Source: Basidiobolus ranarum
Taxonomy: Eukaryota
Assembly (NCBI GenBank): GCA_040143965.1
Contig: JASJQH010006942.1
Location: 1 to 34,246, forward strand
Direction of reading: 5' to 3'
DNA: 34,246 bases
This document shows positions 1-21,655 of the stretch, in pieces (within the stretch, counting starts at the first letter, position 1; every line of letters starts with the position of its first letter). The notes below the pieces were generated by a model. It saw only the letters and a list, made by a program, of their open reading frames with translations, was not told where the DNA came from and did no database searches. The position numbers and the translations under genes were made by a program.

Positions 1-6
1 CCATAT

Positions 7-111
7 TCTGAGAATATGATATTACCGAATTGAATTGATCTGAGAATATGATATTACCGAATTGAATTGATCTGAGAATATGATATTACCGAATTGAATT
101 GATCTGAGAAT
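7..111. repeat. Tandem repeat, 32-bp unit TCTGAGAATATGATATTACCGAATTGAATTGA, about 3.3 perfect copies
   Basis: Identical units at 7-38, 39-70 and 71-102, plus a partial unit at 103-111. Confidence 0.95.
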
Positions 112-372
112 TCGTCACTCACTTTCCCAGTCCATCATCTGAGTAGGAGTTTTAAACAAGTCCACATGGAATTTAAATGGCTATTTAGTACATTTATTAG
201 GGGGTTTCTTTACTAATGCAAGAGATTAACAAACCATCACTAATACGACATATGTTAATCAAGCTTCATTAATGTAAATAGGTGAGAATATCAAAAGAAT
301 AAAATTTACTAGCAAAGATGTAGTGAAAACATGGCTACAAGAAATATATATGTAAATTAAGCAAAAGTTGAC

Positions 373-1776
373 CTAAGTTATTATACTGTGCAACTCGTAA
401 TCTTGATTAGCTTGGTACGCAGCAATAGGTTGGAATTCTTGTTGTAAGTAACGTTTAAAGGTGTGCTGATACATCAACAACTTCACCTCGGTCAAAGCCG
501 TTTCAAACATATCTATAGAATAATCCCTGTCTCGAATACGAATCTCAATTTCACGCAGTGTCTCCCCCCGTAAATTCACTTGGTACTCCGAATCGTCCCG
601 AATGAATGTATTGTAAATGGACGATAATTCATTCTGAATTTCACTTGGCAATCCTCTCGTGAGGAAATTCTTTACCAGGATGGAGGGAGTGGTCTTGAGG
701 CGTACGTAACGTTCGTAGAATAGTGTATTCTCTACACTGAAATCTTTCACTGAAAATGCCTTGAACTTCTCAAAAAGCACTGGATGGTCGAGGACTTCCT
801 CAAACGATGGATGCTTTCGATCCCGAGGTAGATTCTTGGAACGTTGATTAGTCATATAAATTTCGATAAGAGGAAGCCCACAATTTAACAAGTGAATGCT
901 CCAAAGTGTAATAAAGCCCCACACTCCCACCGGTACAGTGTATCTTACTTCGTATACTGGAGGTATATAAGCAAAAATGAGATAGATACACATTCCAATC
1001 CCTGTCGTCAGGACAATAGTAACCAACTCTTTAACGATATTATAAGCATCACTTACACCGCGGATATATTGGATTACAATAGGGCCCAAGATAAAAATCT
1101 CACAGGATCCTACTACGTAGACTGGGATGAACTCCCACCCAGAGAGGCAGTCATCTCTCAAAGGAGCAGAGAAGCTATAATCTTTAGTCAAACATTGGAT
1201 CACTATTGTCATGCCCAAGTGAAACAATGTCATGCCAGCAAGGATACGTATTAAAAATCGATCCTCAAAGATGTAGGAATGTAAATGTAGCCATGAACTA
1301 TTGATTTCAGATTCGGAGTTAGATTTCAGGTTTGTGGAGGAGTCAACGGTTAGCAGGATGTCAGAAGGTTCGAACATATGCTCTTTTTGGGAGGAAATTG
1401 AAGAAGGCTTGTTTTTTTCTTTCTGATCCTCCATACGCTGACGTTCGGCCTTTAGCTTACTCAGAGATGTTCTATATAAGAAGGAGACTCTTAGAAACTT
1501 CCCGATGGTAGTCAGCAAAATAACTGGAGTCAAGACGGAGCCGCACCATAAGGTGACAAAACATGGTACAAATTGAGTTAAAGGCCCGACAAGATATACA
1601 CTGGAGAGAAAGAAACTGGCTACCACGCCAATAAATGTAATAGGAATGCTTCTTGATCTGACACCTGGGTGATCTCGATATTTCCAGAAATAAGTACTTG
1701 TTGTTAACACAGAGATAAGGTAAATAGCATATGTAGTATAAACAACTGAGGCGACCCCGGCTGCGGATCGGGCCAT
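373..1776 (-). CDS. 7-transmembrane protein fused to a C-terminal RGS domain (GprK/AtRGS1-like architecture), intronless
   Basis: First ATG in the ORF is at 1776 (MARSAAG...). Seven hydrophobic segments, then RGS motifs FEEVLDHP..FKAFSVKDFSVENTLFY and IYNTFI..SEYQVNL..MFE.A..EV..LM...TF.RY; TAG at 373-375. Confidence 0.88.
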   Translation of the reverse strand: MARSAAGVASVVYTTYAIYLISVLTTSTYFWKYRDHPGVRSRSIPITFIGVVASFFLSSVYLVGPLTQFVPCFVTLWCGSVLTPVILLTTIGKFLRVSFLYRTSLSKLKAERQRMEDQKEKNKPSSISSQKEHMFEPSDILLTVDSSTNLKSNSESEINSSWLHLHSYIFEDRFLIRILAGMTLFHLGMTIVIQCLTKDYSFSAPLRDDCLSGWEFIPVYVVGSCEIFILGPIVIQYIRGVSDAYNIVKELVTIVLTTGIGMCIYLIFAYIPPVYEVRYTVPVGVWGFITLWSIHLLNCGLPLIEIYMTNQRSKNLPRDRKHPSFEEVLDHPVLFEKFKAFSVKDFSVENTLFYERYVRLKTTPSILVKNFLTRGLPSEIQNELSSIYNTFIRDDSEYQVNLRGETLREIEIRIRDRDYSIDMFETALTEVKLLMYQHTFKRYLQQEFQPIAAYQANQDYELHSIIT

Positions 1777-2130
1777 GGCAAAATATTGAAGGAAAATCAA
1801 AGTAATCCTGAAGAGATGAGATAGTTATATACTGATACAACAATAGAATAGGAGCAACATCTTGCCTTTCGTGGACTTCATTCTCTGCCAGCTACACCCT
1901 ATCCTAACTTAATAGTGGTGAAAACGTTTATCCCGAATCGTACTGATATTGTTGAAATTTAGGGAGTAGTGATGCTTCAGTTATCTGGCATAAGGCAGTA
2001 TTTCACCAAACTGGGTAGTTAGGACCAGTACATCACAAACACTATATAATGTCAGCAATTTACCTTCTTATGCCTTTAACTTGTTCTACGAAAAACACTC
2101 TCCCTGTTTATTGAATATACAGCCATATTC

Positions 2131-3005
2131 ATAAATGGGACTCAGGAGTCTGATATGAAGAATTTCATCAAAGCCAGGCTCGTCATTCAATGTACAGACG
2201 TAATTTGCATTCAAGAGCCAGTCACCATCAATGTATGATCTTCAGTTACCACTTCTTGCCGCCACCCACCTACTCATTGATCATCCCAACCTGGATCACC
2301 TATTATGATAACGCGACCAAAGAAACTACTGTCTGTACCAATTGGCCATTAGGCTTAACGACTCCTCACTTCGTCTTGATTAACAAACCAGTGTCTGAGA
2401 CAGGGGGAGTCATTTGCTCAATAACTATATACTGCACTTTGACCTCCTCAAACATGGTTACTTGACCACTTAACAAAGGATTAAACCGATTGGATGTTAA
2501 ATAAGATTTATTGACTGTGCCAACAAATATATGCAACTTCCGAAAATATCACCAATTAAAAACATCATCCGTACATAGGATCAACTTCTTCTAGGCCATG
2601 AAGTTTCAGCCTGGCGATATTGATATTCAAAGATGGATTGTGTGCTACTCGAAGAAAGGAAGCCACGTTACAATTAATCTTAAACTTCAAGGTGTTCTAG
2701 AAGAAGATGAGCCAAAAATTAACATGTCTATCTAGAACCTTTCCATCCCATTTTTCGCCAATTTTCCTAACACCTTTCTAGACCAGTGTCCACATCGACT
2801 CTTGAAGCATCTTACATGTTTCGTTCTAGTTTATTCAATTCTGGAGAGAAAATCAACTTATCTGCCCTCGGGTATTATTTTATTAGCAGAGTGCAAACTT
2901 GTGCCTGAGATGCAATCATTACGATATCCAATGAATAATCGGACACTAAACCAGTTGAAGAGTTTCAGTCACCTTTATATGGATAGAATAATCCCTACTG
3001 ATCAT
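2131..3005 (+). mobile_element. Highly degenerate non-LTR retrotransposon (L1/Tx1-like) APE endonuclease relic
   Basis: Collinear motif remnants across stops and frameshifts: ING(LRS) 2131, DVICIQEP 2197-2220, QIYA 2524-2535, GD 2613, TF..HID 2791-2799, TDH 2997-3005. Tyr-to-Asp (~29 codons) and Asp-to-Asp (~60 codons) spacing resembles L1 EN Y115/D145/D205. Confidence 0.5.
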
Positions 3006-3113
3006 TCTAGGTAGAGATCCAGCTATCCAGAATTTATCATGTGCATTGGAATGAAATATCAGCTAATTTAAACAATATCGCAGAATTATACTCTTATCTC
3101 TTTATTAGGACAT

Positions 3114-3450
3114 CCAATCAACAGCGAATTACTATCCGCAATAATTGACTGTCGTTGTTATAATTAGTAATTTCCCTATTGACCAATCACTCACAGTAAT
3201 TGGGCTAATAGTACTGAGCACAAAAAACAAGCATTCTTTCAGAATTCCCAACATGTGCAAACTCATTTACTTGTAATAATATTAGCTGAATGAGGTGAAC
3301 GTAATTCCTCGTCAGACCATAACAAACCAATCAGCTCTGGAAGTCCATTGAGCGGAAATCAACAACCCCCAATTAATGCACTGATGTTCATAAGGTGGTA
3401 GTGCACAGTAGATTTACTTAAGATTACAACCACCAAGCTCTCATATAAAT
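3114..3450 (+). promoter_or_regulatory. Promoter of Ecl1-like copy 1: three CCAATCA boxes, a TTAGTAA (YRE-like) site and a TATA box
   Basis: CCAATCA at 3114, 3183 and 3327; TTAGTAA 3164-3170; TATAAA about 55 nt upstream of ATG 3501. Confidence 0.45.
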
Positions 3451-3500
3451 TCACGAACGATTGCTTCATTGCATACAACATTACTCAATATTCACTCACA

Positions 3501-3818
3501 ATGGATTCTGACTGGTGTACTTTCTGTGGCAAACATGTTGAAACTTCTGGACACTTGTACTGTAGTGATATCTGCCATCATAAAGATCGCATTTCTGGAT
3601 CAACTGATCACATCAGATCCCTCAATATCACATCTGGTGCTGGAACCACTTTAAGTAATCGCCGAATTGCTACAGTCACTCCGGTTGATGAGCCACCATT
3701 CACTCTCCGATTGCATAAGAGAAATAATTCCGTCCTTCCAATCATGCCTAAAGGATATCCAACAATTAGGCGATCTGGCATCCATACATCTCTCCGATTG
3801 ACCGTCTCAGTTTACTAG
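3501..3818 (+). CDS. ecl1: Ecl1/2/3-family (life-span regulatory factor) zinc-binding small protein, copy 1, 105 aa
   Basis: MDSDWCTFCGK..LYCSDICHHKD matches the CxxC...LYCSxxC..D Ecl1 signature; the C-terminal motif PFTLxLHKxNNxxLPIMPKGYPTI is shared with copy 2 with many synonymous changes. Confidence 0.85.
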   Translation: MDSDWCTFCGKHVETSGHLYCSDICHHKDRISGSTDHIRSLNITSGAGTTLSNRRIATVTPVDEPPFTLRLHKRNNSVLPIMPKGYPTIRRSGIHTSLRLTVSVY

Positions 3819-3930
3819 TAGCAAGCCAATACGCAAGTTTCTAACTCTGTTCATGTTTATTTTGTATAGTTTTTTTGTTTTCATACTTCTCCTCCAAACT
3901 TACTATGGAACCTCGATAGATGATAGTAGC

Positions 3931-4319
3931 TCCATTCGAACTCAAACCCCTTTCTGAGTATCGTTGGAACTTGCTTCATTGATGAATCACAGTTGCTTCA
4001 TAGATTTGATGGTCATGACAAACCCAGACATTCAATCAGCACTGCAAAGTGTTGAGTCTACTACCAAGGGGTTGGTAGTAGAGCACCAGTAACATTGTAA
4101 TTGGTATGTCAAATCATGAAAGCAATGCCAGAGGCTCCGAGTCCTTTTCCAACAATGATTACAATGCATACATGGCCCATTTGTAAAGCATCACTATAGC
4201 ATACATTCGTACATACTGCAAAGTATGCACGCTTGTATTGATAACAACATATTTCACAGAAATAGAGCAGTTCCTTTTTTCAACAAAAGGTACGGTATAG
4301 TTGGAAAAGAGTAAGTACA
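3931..4319 (+). ncRNA. Candidate structured RNA element downstream of Ecl1-like copy 1 (3'UTR element or processed ncRNA; family unknown)
   Basis: 3 substitutions in 389 nt versus 5538-5926. Stems at 3993-4010/4108-4125, 4036-4043/4048-4055 (GCAA loop), 4057-4065/4074-4082, 4085-4090/4100-4105, 4144-4153/4300-4309 and 4201-4217/4222-4238 (GCAA loop). G.U pairs favour the + strand. Confidence 0.6.
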
Positions 4320-4445
4320 AACATATTTCAAGTTTATTTTTGGTCATTCTACTATATATGTGTGAGTAAGGTAAAGTTCAGGATTTATTATTAGACAAGT
4401 TTGAGGTGTCTGACATCGATGACAACCATATCGTGGTGAAAGGAT

Positions 4446-4509
4446 CGATTATCTTAGCATTTACATTTCAATAAAGACGATTATCTTAGCATTTACATTT
4501 CAATAAAGA
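4446..4509. repeat. Perfect 32-bp direct tandem duplication CGATTATCTTAGCATTTACATTTCAATAAAGA x2
   Basis: 4446-4477 = 4478-4509; lies right after the end of the segment shared with the copy-2 locus. Confidence 0.95.
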
Positions 4510-4817
4510 TATCAAATCAAAAAATTCCATTATCCTTACAAATTGTAGCGTTGTGAAGCAAATAAAAAATGTGCCGTTATCATAGAAAAAAGAAATACTG
4601 AACACAAAAAAATATATTTAGTAAATTGCTACTATATTAGTAAAAGCCATATTTTACCCGTCTTGATCATCCTGTCCGCAATGATGAATTTCTGATCTTT
4701 AGGCACTGTTCTATCCATTATTATTGGTTAAATCTATGGGTATACCGAAAAGAGATGGAAAACCCTAGAAGAGATTAGCAACTTCGAGTGACAGGGAATG
4801 TCGTAGAATTCTCATAA

Positions 4818-4952
4818 CCAATCATTCTTGATAATTATGAGGTTGACGATTATGATTGACTGCAAATTACATATTTAGTAAATCAAAGCCCCAATCACTG
4901 GCTTGAAAGAAAAACCACATGGGATCCCTGGGCATTTATGCTTCATATAAAT
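4818..4952 (+). promoter_or_regulatory. Promoter of Ecl1-like copy 2: CCAATCA boxes, TTAGTAA and TATA box
   Basis: CCAATCA at 4818 and 4891; TTAGTAA 4875-4881; TATAAA about 90 nt upstream of ATG 5035. Confidence 0.45.
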
Positions 4953-5034
4953 ATGGTTTACAAGCCCATAGAGCTGTACTGACAATCTTCTCAATCAACA
5001 CTTTCTGTTCTATCTACTTCACAACATATCAAAA

Positions 5035-5412
5035 ATGGATTCTGACTGGTGTACTTTCTGTGGCAAACATGTTGAAACTTCTGGACTTCTCTACTGTGGT
5101 GAGATTTGTCGCCAGAAGGATCGCATTGCCGGCTCAACCTTGGCTATCAAGGCTAACACTGCCAAACCAATCATCAATACCCTGTCTGCTACTGCCACTT
5201 TCAGCAACAGCAGCCTCAAGTCCAAGCTCCAAGCTACTTTCACAAACGGAAAACTGAATGTCTCGGATTCCAAATCAACAATCAACGAAATTCCATTCAC
5301 ATTGAAGCTTCACAAGAAGAACAACGCGATTCTGCCGATCATGCCCAAGGGATATCCAACAATTATGAAATCAGCCATCCGTCCTCAACGCTACTCAATT
5401 ATTGCTTACTAG
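5035..5412 (+). CDS. ecl1: Ecl1/2/3-family zinc-binding small protein, copy 2, 125 aa
   Basis: MDSDWCTFCGK..LYCGEICRQKD; first 52 nt identical to copy 1; shared C-terminal LPIMPKGYPTI motif. Confidence 0.85.
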   Translation: MDSDWCTFCGKHVETSGLLYCGEICRQKDRIAGSTLAIKANTAKPIINTLSATATFSNSSLKSKLQATFTNGKLNVSDSKSTINEIPFTLKLHKKNNAILPIMPKGYPTIMKSAIRPQRYSIIAY

Positions 5413-5537
5413 ATTCGAAACGCGCAAGTCTCATCATGAATATTAACCAACTTTTTTAGTTTTCTTTTTGTATATTCACATTGTTAAATACTCACCCTCT
5501 AAATTAAGTATTCCGGACCTCGATAGATGTAAGCAGT

Positions 5538-5926
5538 TCCATTCGAACTCAAACCCCTTTCTGAGTATCGTTGGAACTTGCTTCATTGATGAATCACAGT
5601 TGCTTCATAGATTTGATGATCATGACAAACCCAGACATTCAATCAGCACTGCAAAGTGTTGAGTCTACTACCAAGGGGTTGGTAGTAGAGCACCAATAAC
5701 ATCGTAATTGGTATGTCAAATCATGAAAGCAATGCCAGAGGCTCCGAGTCCTTTTCCAACAATGATTACAATGCATACATGGCCCATTTGTAAAGCATCA
5801 CTATAGCATACATTCGTACATACTGCAAAGTATGCACGCTTGTATTGATAACAACATATTTCACAGAAATAGAGCAGTTCCTTTTTTCAACAAAAGGTAC
5901 GGTATAGTTGGAAAAGAGTAAGTACA
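5538..5926 (+). ncRNA. Second copy of the candidate structured RNA element, downstream of Ecl1-like copy 2
   Basis: Offset +1607 from copy 1 with the same stems; ends at GTAAGT 5918-5923. Confidence 0.6.
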
Positions 5927-6543
5927 GATATATTTTAACAATATATTGGGTCATCCCACCATATACGTGCGCTATAGCAGCGCACGAAGTAAGGTAAAGT
6001 TCTGGGTTTATTATTATAACGGTTTGAGGTGTCTAACATCGACGACAACCATATGGTGGTGAAAGGGTTGAGTATACTTTTTCGTTCTTTTTTTAAATAA
6101 AAATTATTTCCAACAAATTCATTGATTAGTAATATTTTTATTCGTATGATCTTATTTAAATATAGCGCTTGGCATCGAGGGTGTCATAGATAATATGTGA
6201 TACAAAAATTTAGGCCAGTTAAATTGATATTTGGTTCCAATATTAATAGACTAATCGCGCATTATACAAAGTAAACAAATTGTCACCTAGCCATAATATA
6301 CGTGTACTTCATTTAATACCAAATCAAATTTAGAGATCTGGACCAATTGGGTGAACCTTACTAGTCAAGATTTTTAGTAATTGTGAGGTAGCAATATTCA
6401 GTAATGCTATTAACATTAGACACCAAGAAGTAAGCCTTTATTTTATCCCCAATCAATAAACGCCGAACTTTTATAGTTTATTTCTTTGAAAGCTTCAAAA
6501 TTCATTGTTAACGGATCCAGAAACTTTGACCAAATCATTCAGA

Positions 6544-7926
6544 ATGCAACTTAATATCGAACCATCTACTCAACTTTCTTTCAGAAGTAAGTTTTCTGTT
6601 TTCATCTATGGCGATTCAATTGTTCGTGTTTATTCATCTGATATTCATGTTTTCTTTATCTAGGACCTTTAACTACCTTGACTCAAGATATATTAGTTTT
6701 ACGAAATGACTCCCAAGAACCAATAGCTTTCAAGGTAAAAACCACGGCTCCTAAGCAGTACTGTGTACGTCCTAATGCTGGCAGAATTGAGAGTGGACAA
6801 GAAGTTCAAGTACAAGGTACTTTGCGATGTTTTCTATAGCAGTGAATACTATATTGAATACGACGCCTAATCTTGCTATTTCTACAGTCATCTTGCAACC
6901 TTTGAAAGAAGATCCTCCTCTGGATTTCAAATGCAAGGACAAGTTCCTTGTTCAAAGCATTGCCATCACTCCTGATAAGGAGACTCAAAATCTTCAAGAC
7001 TTGGTAACTCCTTTGCTTATCATCTGGATAATGTTGAATATCTTACTTACTTCTATCACCTATACTCCTGGTCAATAATAGTGGAACTCTGTTGAAAAGA
7101 CTGACAAAAATAGCATCAGTGAGCGTAAACTTCGCTGTTCCTATCTTCCTCCTGTTGTTCAAGGCGAGGTTTGTTATTTAAATTTGATGACTTTCTGTTT
7201 CATTGTCTGAAATATAATGTGAATAATTAGGAAGAAGCTACTGCAAACAATCCTAATGAATATCGTTTCCCTCCCACCTACCAGGAATCTGCCACCGCCG
7301 GTATTGCTGTTAGCGAATCATCGGGTGCCTCACCTATAGCTAGTTCTCCAATTGAACCTCAATCCTATCCTCCTGTTTTGCCTAATACCGGAGATAGCGT
7401 GTTAGACAAATTTTCTACCAGTAAAGGCGAGATTAGCAAGGTAACGAAGCCAAAGTTGAATGACGTAAATGGATTTTTGTTCACACTTTAATATTCATAG
7501 AGTGATTATATCTCCGACGACCAGGAAATCCAAAACTTGAGAAGCGACTTAACACAAGTAATTAACTGGATGTTATTAGTTGACATTGATATTCAGACGT
7601 ATTAATCCTTCTATATCTAGGCTAAATTAAGAATTCAAACATTAGAGAGTCAGTTGAATGAAAGCAGTAATGAAACAAGTACCATTAGAAACGTATGTAC
7701 TCCTCATTTGAAGTCCTCAAATTCTTGTAAGCTAACATTTGAATATGGTTCGCAGCGTCAACAAACTGTTTCTGCAAATGAGTCACTCAAGGATGTATCA
7801 GTACCAAAAATTCATGCTCACACAAGTTCTTTGTTACTTCAGCCATACAGCGATCAAACATTCCCACTACAGTTGGTGGTGGTCATCTCGGTCGCTTCTT
7901 TCTTGTTAGGAGCTGTTATCTTTTAG
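6544..7926 (+). CDS. SCS2: VAMP-associated protein (MSP domain, coiled coil, C-terminal TM), multi-exon
   Basis: Spliced reading gives MQLNIEPSTQLSFRRPLT..IAFKVKTTAPKQYCVRPNAG (VAP signature) and CKDKFLVQS; tail anchor LVVVISVASFLLGAVIF*; GT-AG introns. Confidence 0.92.
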
Positions 7927-8620
7927 TTTGACTCGATGAATAGGAATTCATGAACATATTATATTTCAGTCCCAGCTTTAGTCCCAGTTCACCTACATCC
8001 TTCTCATTTTCTTTACTTCAATTTGAGTGGTTGGCTGTTGAGAGTTGTACTTGCTCTCACGCGATCAATATTTACACAAACCAATGAATCAGTGCAAGAA
8101 TGTTTATCGACTTTTCGCTATGTTACTCGCTAGCAGATAGCAGAGAATAAATTAAGCCTTTCACCGAAATATTAAATTCATACTGATGGCCCTATTTTAG
8201 CATCTTAGCTAGTGATCATCCGGCCTTTCTTTTCATCATCTTCCTTAACAAGGATTGACTTGATGTATTCTATGTAGAGAGCAGATCTTATCTGTTATAT
8301 GAGTATGAGTGACCAATACCTGTTTATTTTGTGAGGGGAGTTGGTTTAAACCAATGATACCGGGCTAGATTTAAATCATCTTCTATGTGAAGTGGGTGAA
8401 ATTAAGATCTTACATAATCAAGAGAGGTTTATGATGATAAAGGTGTATTAGTATTCAAGTGTCGTCATCAAAAATAGGAAATATTCTGTTAGGACTACCA
8501 CCAACCTGGCTAAGAACTGTAAGAGGTCCAAGTTTAGCAATACCAAAACCAATACCAGAAAACGAATTTGAAAAACCCCCTACTTTTTCATTTCAAGTTA
8601 ACTTGGTCAACTACTTACTC

Positions 8621-13248: not shown

Positions 13249-14037
13249 ATGCTTAACGGAATCTTCTTTCTCTTCTCAAACGCTTGGAACGGGTTTAAAA
13301 CTCTTTACGTTCCACCTACCGTTTCCAAGATTACCGCTGGTCCAAGCGAAATCGAACTGATTAAAAAAGAGTTACAACAATTGAGAGCAGAAAACACTCG
13401 GTTAAAAAATGTCGAGACTGACTATCGAAAGAGTATACGTGAACAAGCAGAGGAGATAACCAATCTCAAAGCTTTAATCGCCTCCTACGAACGTCGTCTT
13501 GAAGAAAGTGAGTCACTGGTAGCCTCTAACAAACGTCGTTTGGAAGAAACTGAACTATTAGTTATCTCATATCAGCGTTGTTTAGAGAAAAACCAATCAT
13601 TCTTTGACACAATCGAAAAGGGCCTAGTCAATTTGAAGGAGGTTCAGGGGTTAGATTACTCGCGTACCATGGACTATATTGTTCTTTCTACCGTTCGTGA
13701 CGTGAAAATTTTAACTTTCAAACTTACCGATATCGTTTTGGAGAGTGGTGATAAAATTTACGTTTGTGGCGGTCACAAGTTACTAGGTGAGTGGGTTCCT
13801 ACCTCTGGTTTGGAGCTTACTCCCGTGAACTCTCACTATGAGGTTTCGGTAGGTGTGAATGAATTGGCTCAAAGAGAATTAGGTTCCATTCAATATAAAT
13901 ACGCACTTCTTCGTGGCAACGCGTGGTATTGGGAAAGTGGCAAAGATAGATTTAGAGAAAATCCAATATACAGCGACATTGTTGATATCCAACCCAGAGA
14001 GTGGGAAGTAAACCCTTGTCTGTCAAGTGCCGAATGA
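13249..14037 (+). CDS. Coiled-coil protein with a C-terminal CBM20 starch/glycogen-binding domain, intronless
   Basis: GDKIYVCGGHKLLGEW...LEL...IQYKY....WYWESGKDR fits the CBM20 consensus; heptad-rich N-terminal half with three 14-aa repeats. Confidence 0.8.
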   Translation: MLNGIFFLFSNAWNGFKTLYVPPTVSKITAGPSEIELIKKELQQLRAENTRLKNVETDYRKSIREQAEEITNLKALIASYERRLEESESLVASNKRRLEETELLVISYQRCLEKNQSFFDTIEKGLVNLKEVQGLDYSRTMDYIVLSTVRDVKILTFKLTDIVLESGDKIYVCGGHKLLGEWVPTSGLELTPVNSHYEVSVGVNELAQRELGSIQYKYALLRGNAWYWESGKDRFRENPIYSDIVDIQPREWEVNPCLSSAE

Positions 14038-20620: not shown

Positions 20621-21655
20621 ATGTGTGACAAATTCAAGACGTTCCTCATCTTTCTATCGATTCCTTGTTGTTTTGGACAAGATATAAATCCTTTAGTGAG
20701 CTTTTTGTATTGTCAGAATGAATTCGATATAATACCCAACAATTGTGATCAATTTAAATTTCCAGTAGTATCACAGGCCATTTGCTCCCCGAAGATCCCT
20801 CCCAATCCCTTGAATTTCTCCTCAACATATAGCCCACCTAGCGATAAAAAAAAGATGATGCTTACTTTGACCAACGTGTTTGAGCACGCTTCCAAAATAA
20901 TTAACTACGCCTTTTGTGAGAACATTGGTGACGGGAGAGGATATACTTGTGGTAGCGTTGGTTTCGCTACTGGTACGAGTAACGCTTTAACAGTGATCGA
21001 AGAGTACAAGGCACGTGGGGGGAGGTCAGAGCTATTCAAATACATCCCAGAGTTGCAAAGATTGGCAACTTCAAACGACTGTAGCGTACCACGTGGAGAT
21101 ATCAGTAAATTGAAAGGGTTCCCAGAGATATGGCAGAAAGATTCTTGTCAAATATTATTTCGTATAGTGCAGGACGAGATGGCCGATTATCTATTCTTTT
21201 TACCTTCCATGAAGTTGGCCACTGAAATGGGTATAAAAACCAACTTGGGGAAAGCAATCTTCTATGATACTGCCGTACAACACGGTTGGCAATTCGACGA
21301 TGGAACTAGTTTACTCTCCATCATAAACTTAACGGGTCCCTTGGCTGGACAAAACGAGATCTTGTGGTTGGAGAAATTCTTAACTATAAGAAGAAAGTTA
21401 CTCTGCTGTTATCCCAATAATGTTTGGCCAGCTTCGGCTGATCGTGTATCTGACTTGATGGACCTTTTAAAAGCTGGAAATCTCAACTTGACCGCTCCTC
21501 TCACATTAAGCGCCTATAAGAGTGTCATCACTGGAGAAGAAGATACTGAGAATTTATGTAGCGCTTCCGCACTTCCACCCGTCTCTTCTGCTCTTACAGT
21601 GGCTCCTTCATTGGTGTTAAATGGGGTACTTTCCATACTTTATCTCTTACGTTAG
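20621..21655 (+). CDS. GH46 chitosanase, secreted, probable GPI anchor, intronless
   Basis: Signal-peptide-like N-terminus; FEH (catalytic Glu) and ENIGDGRGYTCGSVGFATGT match the GH46 EDIGDGRGYTGGIIGF motif; YDTAVQHG; C-terminus with small residues followed by a hydrophobic tail. Confidence 0.9.
   Translation: MCDKFKTFLIFLSIPCCFGQDINPLVSFLYCQNEFDIIPNNCDQFKFPVVSQAICSPKIPPNPLNFSSTYSPPSDKKKMMLTLTNVFEHASKIINYAFCENIGDGRGYTCGSVGFATGTSNALTVIEEYKARGGRSELFKYIPELQRLATSNDCSVPRGDISKLKGFPEIWQKDSCQILFRIVQDEMADYLFFLPSMKLATEMGIKTNLGKAIFYDTAVQHGWQFDDGTSLLSIINLTGPLAGQNEILWLEKFLTIRRKLLCCYPNNVWPASADRVSDLMDLLKAGNLNLTAPLTLSAYKSVITGEEDTENLCSASALPPVSSALTVAPSLVLNGVLSILYLLR

Follow-up and report, generated by a model that had tools for sequence, protein, structure and literature searches.

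A near-identical, strongly folding non-coding element downstream of two tandem Ecl1-like genes in Basidiobolus ranarum as a candidate regulatory RNA

Duplicated RNA-coding or regulatory segments are known to evolve in concert by gene conversion, the two U3 small nucleolar RNA (snoRNA) genes of budding yeast being an example. In the fungus Basidiobolus ranarum (GenBank assembly GCA_040143965.1, contig JASJQH010006942.1, positions 1 to 34,246 of the forward strand), a 389-nucleotide (nt) element follows each of two tandem Ecl1-like genes, at 3931–4319 (copy 1) and 5538–5926 (copy 2). The whole 34,246-nt stretch, which comes from an intron-rich fungus and has a G+C content of 38%, is called the window here, and positions are counted from its first letter. 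Analogous to the concerted pairs, near-identity is found within a sharply bounded core that does not code for protein, and the flanks and the neighboring coding sequences (CDSs) have diverged. Unlike the U3-type pairs, the homogenized core falls into no known RNA family and belongs to a transcript that is putative only.

Several other systems bear a resemblance to the element. Introner-like elements of fungi are described as occurring in hundreds of copies, exceeding regular introns in length and having stable predicted structures, which the authors consider to be under selection (PMC3609843). The element resembles them in being fungal, in having near-identical copies a few hundred bases in length and in its predicted structure, which is stable. 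In contrast, it lacks GT...AG borders, lies 3′ of a stop codon and is present in the 34-kb window as two copies at homologous positions of a tandem duplication. In eukaryotic thiamine pyrophosphate (TPP) riboswitches, splicing is reported to be governed by base pairing over long distances (PMC3597705, PMC5882874). The element would likewise be a multi-helix RNA, as predicted, in a non-coding part of an mRNA, with a donor-like GUAAGU that a distant complement could sequester, but it matches no TPP model, is followed by no conserved acceptor and has a masking stem that is not robust. The TPP aptamer is also three to four times smaller than the element.

The RNAs of RNase P and RNase MRP offer a third comparison, with ∼390 nt, two domains, GNRA-type tetraloops and joined 5′ and 3′ parts, features that the element shares in its predicted fold. 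No RNaseP_nuc, RNase_MRP or other such model was hit at E ≤ 10 with a 561-nt query, and tandem copies tied to a pair of protein-coding paralogues would be unusual for these RNAs. As in H/ACA snoRNAs, the tract ends in ACA and two structured halves are separated by a single-stranded hinge. Instead of single hairpins with a pocket, however, the halves are multi-branch; the first domain has a lower stem of 18 bp, and the ACA lies 7 nt beyond the stem of the second. The hinge (4127–4143) contains no ANANNA, the nearest candidate being AAAGCA at 4119, within the stem of the first domain. For C/D snoRNAs, the element has no RTGATGA, its single CTGA (3954) lies upstream of its only TGATGA, and the models reached only E = 6.6–9.9. 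Both snoRNA classes were rejected on these missing or misplaced boxes.

To our knowledge, very few large, autonomously folding cis-regulatory RNAs have been described in fungi apart from TPP riboswitches, and we know of almost nothing on how zygomycete-grade fungi regulate genes at the level of RNA. In fission yeast, proteins of the Ecl1 family act as inhibitors of TORC1 and mediate the response to starvation (PMC11984688). If the reading favored below is correct, a structured RNA on Ecl1 mRNAs would add a post-transcriptional layer to nutrient signaling.

The Ecl1-like CDSs lie on the + strand at 3501–3818 (CDS a, an open reading frame (ORF) of 105 amino acids (aa)) and at 5035–5412 (CDS b, its tandem paralogue, 125 aa). 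Both match Pfam PF12855 (33.1 and 36.6 bits, respectively, against a cut-off of 28.3), and their proteins are 52% identical with indels, in agreement with the original prediction, made from the sequence of the window, of two diverged Ecl1-like genes. A protein identical to that of CDS a is already recorded as an annotated protein. Global alignment of both gene units places the tandem duplication from approximately the start codon to 4452 in the first unit and to 6075 in the second, with highly uneven conservation along its length. The first 62 nt of the CDSs (3501–3562 and 5035–5096) are identical, the middle differs by indels, and the region of the C-terminal motif is ∼70% identical (family D5 of the repeat search). 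Within codons 1–21, the same codon is used at 17 of 18 conserved degenerate codons, compared with 19 of 41 elsewhere. Because the other 22 of these 41 differ, the duplication is, judged by its codons, old, with synonymous sites near saturation.

Against this background, 386 of the 389 positions of the element are identical between the copies, the differences being 4012 (G/A), 4089 (G/A) and 4096 (T/C). The alignment thereby reproduced the coordinates and variable sites first given, and an independent repeat search also recovered the pair 3931–4319 and 5538–5926 (family D1). Alignment blocks over the element (3911–4310) hold 96–100 identical columns per 100, versus 55 and 68 in the adjoining blocks. 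The stretches between stop codon and element (3819–3930, 112 nt; 5413–5537, 125 nt) retain ∼55–59 identical columns per 100 and are diverged, as had been noted. An exception within them is a conserved 12-mer, CCTCGATAGATG, just 5′ of the element (3911–3922, + strand; partner 5518–5529). The tract reads TCCATT...GTACA on the + strand and TGTACT...AATGGA on the minus strand, stopping exactly on ACA (4317–4319), and its 3′ edge, GTAAGTACA (4311–4319), resembles a splice donor. Beyond it lie a variable linker with indels (4320–4366; partner 5927–5989) and a downstream conserved block (4367–4452; partner 5990–6075) with 12 differences in 86 nt and a hairpin at 4415–4449. A GC-rich perfect palindrome with 8-bp arms and a 5-nt loop (5966–5986) is present in copy 2 only, in a 16-nt indel after the element.

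Folded on the + strand, copy 1 has a predicted minimum free energy (MFE) of −109.5 kcal/mol and copy 2 of −106.7 kcal/mol. The predicted fold consists of a 5′ hairpin and two multi-branch domains, each closed by a long-range stem, with pair probabilities of 0.82–1.0 in the main helices. The 5′ hairpin (3931–3968) carries a 10-nt loop, AACCCCUUUC, and its pair probabilities are 0.96–0.98. Domain 1 (3992–4126) is closed by an 18-bp stem (3992–4010/4108–4126) enclosing four hairpins, including a GCAA-loop hairpin (4036–4055) and a perfect 11-bp hairpin (4057–4082). A hinge, GCCAGAGGCUCCGAGUC (4127–4143), leads to domain 2 (4144–4309), in which a 10-bp stem (4144–4153/4300–4309) encloses four hairpins, among them one with a GCAA loop at 4201–4238 (4212–4227). 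The two long-range stems and two GCAA hairpins proposed from the sequence are all present in this fold at pair probabilities of 0.82–0.99. Also as proposed, G4089 forms a G.U pair with U4101 in copy 1 that becomes A-U in copy 2, and position 4096 is unpaired. Apart from a small helix at G4012A, the fold of copy 2 is the same as that of copy 1. The 5′ hairpin and both domains persist once the flanks of each copy, which differ, are included in its fold.

Parts of the sequence could pair in other ways. In a two-sequence consensus fold, part of the 12-mer is predicted to pair with 4138–4141 and 3977–3980. Complementary segments unused in the MFE fold are 3945–3952/4066–4073 (8 nt, perfect), 3960–3969/4147–4156 (10 nt, 90%) and 4093–4101/4158–4166, the last being a perfect 9-nt complement in copy 1 that T4096C interrupts in copy 2. 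The segments UUGCUUCAU and GUUGGAA are each duplicated inside the element. Together, these complementarities and duplicated segments would allow pseudoknots or alternative conformations. Two further candidate contacts were compared with shuffled sequence. A loop–loop kissing interaction between CCCC (3947–3950) and GGGG (4068–4071) is no evidence, as runs of at least 4 arose in 295 of 300 loop shuffles, and pairing of the identical 5′ CDS tract with the element was rejected, being equaled by 15% of shuffled 63-mers.

The folding energy is well below that of dinucleotide-shuffled sequences, a comparison that had been proposed as a check. For the whole element on the + strand, −109.5 kcal/mol compares with −83.2 ± 5.7 kcal/mol (z = −4.61), and none of 100 shuffles was as good. 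Domain 1 alone (−49.7 kcal/mol, z = −5.73) and domain 2 alone (−38.5 kcal/mol, z = −4.01) each outperformed all 200 of their shuffles. Since natural sequence can differ from shuffles, other 389-nt segments of the contig served as a background control. The 32 segments drawn from 1–7989 (16 positions on both strands, 25 shuffles each) gave z values of −1.42 to +1.61, and 65 + strand segments from 8001–33989 (20 shuffles each) had a mean z of 0.27, a standard deviation of 1.01 and a minimum of −3.33, so that none of the 97 reached −4.6. Eight segments that overlap an element copy had been set aside, two of them with z values of −7.71 and −5.01. In a 120-nt scan of 3301–6270, values of z ≤ −3 occurred only where the scanned piece overlapped an element copy or the copy-2 palindrome. 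By these predictions, the fold of the element exceeds chance, and nowhere else does the contig fold strongly. The lowest background z (−3.3, 20 shuffles) belongs to 13601–13989 (+), which lies inside an ORF with a CBM20 starch-binding domain.

The original prediction could assign the element to no RNA family, and the comparison of the whole window with Rfam 15 (4227 models) indeed gave no match at gathering score. At E ≤ 10, first with a 3-kb and then with the 561-nt query, only chance-level matches appeared (10.7–18 bits versus gathering scores of 43–90; E = 0.62–9.9). At this threshold, no TPP or other riboswitch family was listed and no tRNA, 5S or signal recognition particle (SRP) RNA matched; a tRNA search also found none. 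The reading frames of the element are closed, with stops in all and longest ORFs of 42–62 aa. The best of six ORFs against Pfam reached E = 0.037 and 14.3 bits against a cut-off of 27, which is not credible. The 62-aa ORF, the one frame searched with phmmer, has no relatives among 1.84 billion representative proteins, and four ORFs (62 and 45 aa, both copies) are absent from a 15-billion protein collection. A coding exon was rejected on these closed frames, the lack of a credible Pfam match and the lack of protein relatives of the 62-aa ORF.

The strand of the element is taken from its context only. AATAAA hexamers occur on the + strand at 4470 and 4502 (4470–4507), with an equivalent at 6096 for copy 2; these lie 18–50 nt and 21 nt, respectively, past the end of the shared homology, and in neither copy is there one between the stop codon and that end. 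Because AATAAA appears only past the shared homology, the element is suggested to lie within a + strand 3′ untranslated region (3′UTR) of ∼650 nt. An exact 32-nt tandem duplication (4446–4509), with AATAAA in each repeat unit, directly follows the first duplicated gene unit. Of five transitions that affect predicted pairs, within the element or in its conserved flanks, four keep the pair on the + strand (3927, 4089, 4412 and 4446) and one, 4012, does not; on the minus strand the counts are reversed. The substitutions thus lean toward the + strand in these predicted structures. In the downstream block, a single hairpin, 4415–4449, keeps its pairs: one two-sided change (4420/4444) and one change from G-C to G.U (4446) preserve pairing, and the end pair at 4449 is lost.

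Tentatively, we favor the reading that the element makes up the structured portion of a long 3′UTR of Ecl1, is under selection and has been homogenized by conversion. In each of the tandem Ecl1-like genes it would form the structured core of the ∼650-nt 3′UTR and act as RNA on the + strand, where its compact two-domain shape would most likely offer a platform for binding and thereby determine the stability, translation or 3′-end processing of the mRNA. Purifying selection would have kept the core similar enough for repeated gene conversion, which would then have homogenized it to 386 of 389 positions while the rest of the duplicated unit drifted. Consistent with this, the identity persists although 22 of 41 degenerate codons differ and the proximal 3′UTR barely aligns. 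From these observations we infer that the element is transcribed within the Ecl1 mRNA, that it acts on the + strand, that its fold is under selection and that it may affect expression. We regard the element as a good, though unproven, candidate for a new regulatory RNA. The initial claim that it is a functional structured RNA stands in part: the element is non-coding, its fold is exceptional, and neither a known family nor transposon hallmarks were found; the substitutions within the fold offer the single site 4089 in favor, and 4012 breaks a pair.

A number of observations weigh against this reading. Thermodynamics leaves the strand ambiguous: the minus strand of the whole element also folds well (z = −3.27), and just 6 G.U pairs occur among the 123 pairs of the predicted fold. 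Domain 1 is more stable on the + strand by 9.4 kcal/mol (minus strand −40.3 kcal/mol, z = −4.08), but for domain 2 the minus strand is the more stable by 7.6 kcal/mol (−46.1 kcal/mol, z = −4.31). Prediction of the structures on the + strand biases the strand count of substitutions, and the use of AAUAAA as a polyadenylation signal in this fungus is an assumption. In the downstream block as a whole (4367–4452), pairs are preserved no better than under random substitutions (P = 0.53 and 0.35). Within the element, G4012A removes a G-C pair from a weak helix of 3 bp that is lost from the fold of copy 2, and the outermost 7-bp stem (3969–3975/4310–4316) is lost in extended folds. A word-based search of 5.8 billion proteins (nine candidates, two hits) returned CDS a and CDS b as relatives of each other only. 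Exact-pattern scans, which detect near-identical DNA only, gave no hits for a 24-mer in metagenome, viral and prokaryote contigs or for a 23-mer in metagenome contigs. Finally, the identical 62-nt CDS tract indicates that conversion alone can yield identity at this locus.

The last point is the starting point of the strongest alternative, in which the element is a recent gene-conversion tract and nothing else, its fold being a by-product of old palindromic DNA without an RNA function. Since the first 62 nt of the CDSs form a further identical tract, gene conversion is the most likely source of the near-identity as judged from the sequences, and the distribution of identity points to patchy homogenization by conversion at the Ecl1-like locus. 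A sharp step in identity together with a second identical tract, with its 17 of 18 against 19 of 41 same codons, is compatible with conversion, though not proof of it. The near-identity is consequently weak evidence for constraint on every base; purifying selection alone rarely preserves 386 of 389 bases, loops included, and the figure exceeds what such selection on RNA usually gives. The helices, nearly all Watson–Crick, and the folding on both strands resemble those of DNA palindromes, and the G+C content of the element (39.1%) is somewhat above that of its flanks (33.9% and 32.3%). In contrast, conversion by itself leaves unexplained why the converted piece is the one extreme fold of the contig, and why both domains and the 5′ hairpin all fall inside the tract. 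Moreover, mismatch-repair control of recombination normally suppresses conversion where sequences have diverged as far as these flanks, so the core must already have been kept similar. In our reading, conversion homogenized a core previously kept similar by selection. We agree with the initial assessment that conversion can account for the identity of the copies but not for their fold, which none of the 97 background segments matches, and consider conversion without RNA function unlikely, if to be taken seriously. Were the fold a by-product after all, the finding would shrink to an ordinary conversion tract. Conversely, the locus offers a clean natural case in which a non-coding core has stayed virtually identical although the tandem duplication around it is old, and comparison of related genomes, of which a preprint reports 19 new Basidiobolus-like ones (10.1101/2025.03.31.646025), could use it to separate selection from gene conversion.

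The sharp identity steps at both ends, with diverged flanks on either side, could also mark an independent non-coding RNA gene, on either strand and transcribed by RNA polymerase II, that was duplicated as a passenger of the Ecl1-like gene and kept alike as duplicates of small RNAs often are. The predicted closed two-domain architecture with GNRA-type loops would suit such a gene, as would the end of the identity exactly at ACA. Between the stop codon and the element, TGTATA (3863 and 5469) might signal an mRNA 3′ end that precedes the element, in keeping with the role of this motif in budding yeast. This explanation appears improbable to us. No Rfam family matches at gathering score and nothing is significant at E ≤ 10, the snoRNA box tests failed, and inspection by eye found no shared TATA-like or other promoter motif upstream except the 12-mer. 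Transcription by RNA polymerase III is disfavored by the runs of T6 (4275) and T4 (4145) inside the element, such runs being terminators for this enzyme.

Near-identical, strongly folding non-coding elements of a few hundred bases are the signature of fungal introner-like elements (PMC3609843), and the two copies could accordingly belong to a dispersed repeat or mobile element (introner-, SINE- (short interspersed nuclear element) or MITE-like (miniature inverted-repeat transposable element)), with other genomic copies as conversion donors. The stable predicted structure (z = −4.61) agrees with this. The position of the copies does not: both occupy the same place in the duplicated unit, and because their flanks are homologous on both sides, independent insertion of the two is excluded. 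GT...AG borders are found on neither strand of the tract. The best alignment of inverted ends scores 8–9 over 50 nt and no flanking direct repeat exceeds 3 nt; no head derived from tRNA, 5S or 7SL was found, and the tail is GTAAGTACA. A recognizable MITE or SINE was rejected for want of inverted ends, a target duplication and such a head. There is no third copy or fragment of the element in the 34-kb window, and the searches described above, with the 62-aa ORF among representative proteins and by pattern in two metagenome, one viral and one prokaryote scan, were equally empty. A dispersed repeat therefore seems a distinctly improbable origin.

The edges of the tract raise the possibility that it is a non-coding exon or, together with the sequence downstream, a structure-gated 3′UTR intron. 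The acceptor would be the YAG at 3927–3929 and 5534–5536, which both copies retain one base ahead of the tract, as TAG in one and CAG in the other, despite the surrounding differences; the donor would be the GTAAGT at 4311, conserved at the other edge. In the gated version, long-range pairing would mask the donor and splicing, hence decay or the choice of 3′ end, would be controlled as in eukaryotic TPP riboswitches. Long-distance pairing that controls splice sites has precedent (PMC3597705), and in the isolated fold GTAAGTACA does pair with 3969–3975 (probability 0.96). This pairing is absent from the extended folds. The neighboring gene on the + strand (6544–7925), whose 302-aa frame opens after removal of seven GT...YAG introns of 60–78 nt, was used as a local reference for splice signals. 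Its donors are GTAAGT, GTACTT, GTAACT, GTTTGT, GTAACG, GTAATT and GTATGT, so that GTAAGT is in local use, and all seven of its acceptors are YAG, as against the GAG (4364–4366) and AAG (5987–5989) available downstream of the element. A good acceptor, TTATTATTAG (4385–4394), is missing from copy 2, and a downstream 3′UTR intron was rejected for lack of a conserved YAG after the putative donor. By eye, no YTRAY branch-point motif lies upstream of 3929, and no TPP or other riboswitch model matches. On balance, a splicing role of either kind is very improbable.

We likewise regard as highly unlikely a bolder version of the favored 3′UTR reading, in which the element would represent a new class of large (about 390–540 nt), tertiary-folded regulatory RNA, its first example coming from an early-diverging fungus and being part of Ecl1-family mRNAs, acting as a sensor, riboswitch-like or as a platform for a dedicated protein, that switches between alternative pairings according to nutrient state and so exposes or hides a splice donor or 3′-processing site; candidates for such alternative pairings would be the 9-nt complement 4093–4101/4158–4166 and the segments UUGCUUCAU and GUUGGAA, both of them duplicated.

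Other features of the window lie apart from the Ecl1-like genes. An ORF at 20621–21655 contains a glycosyl hydrolase family 46 (GH46; chitosanase-type) domain, and the encoded protein falls into one cluster, at ≥90% identity, with a "lysozyme-like protein" of Basidiobolus meristosporus that is partial and lies on another contig. Because GH46 is mainly bacterial, a horizontal origin of this ORF is possible. On the minus strand, an ORF at 373–1776 has an RGS domain together with a 7tm_3 (class C receptor-like) N terminus that scores below the Pfam cut-off. The contig opens with a 32-nt tandem repeat (7–111) in 3.3 perfect copies.

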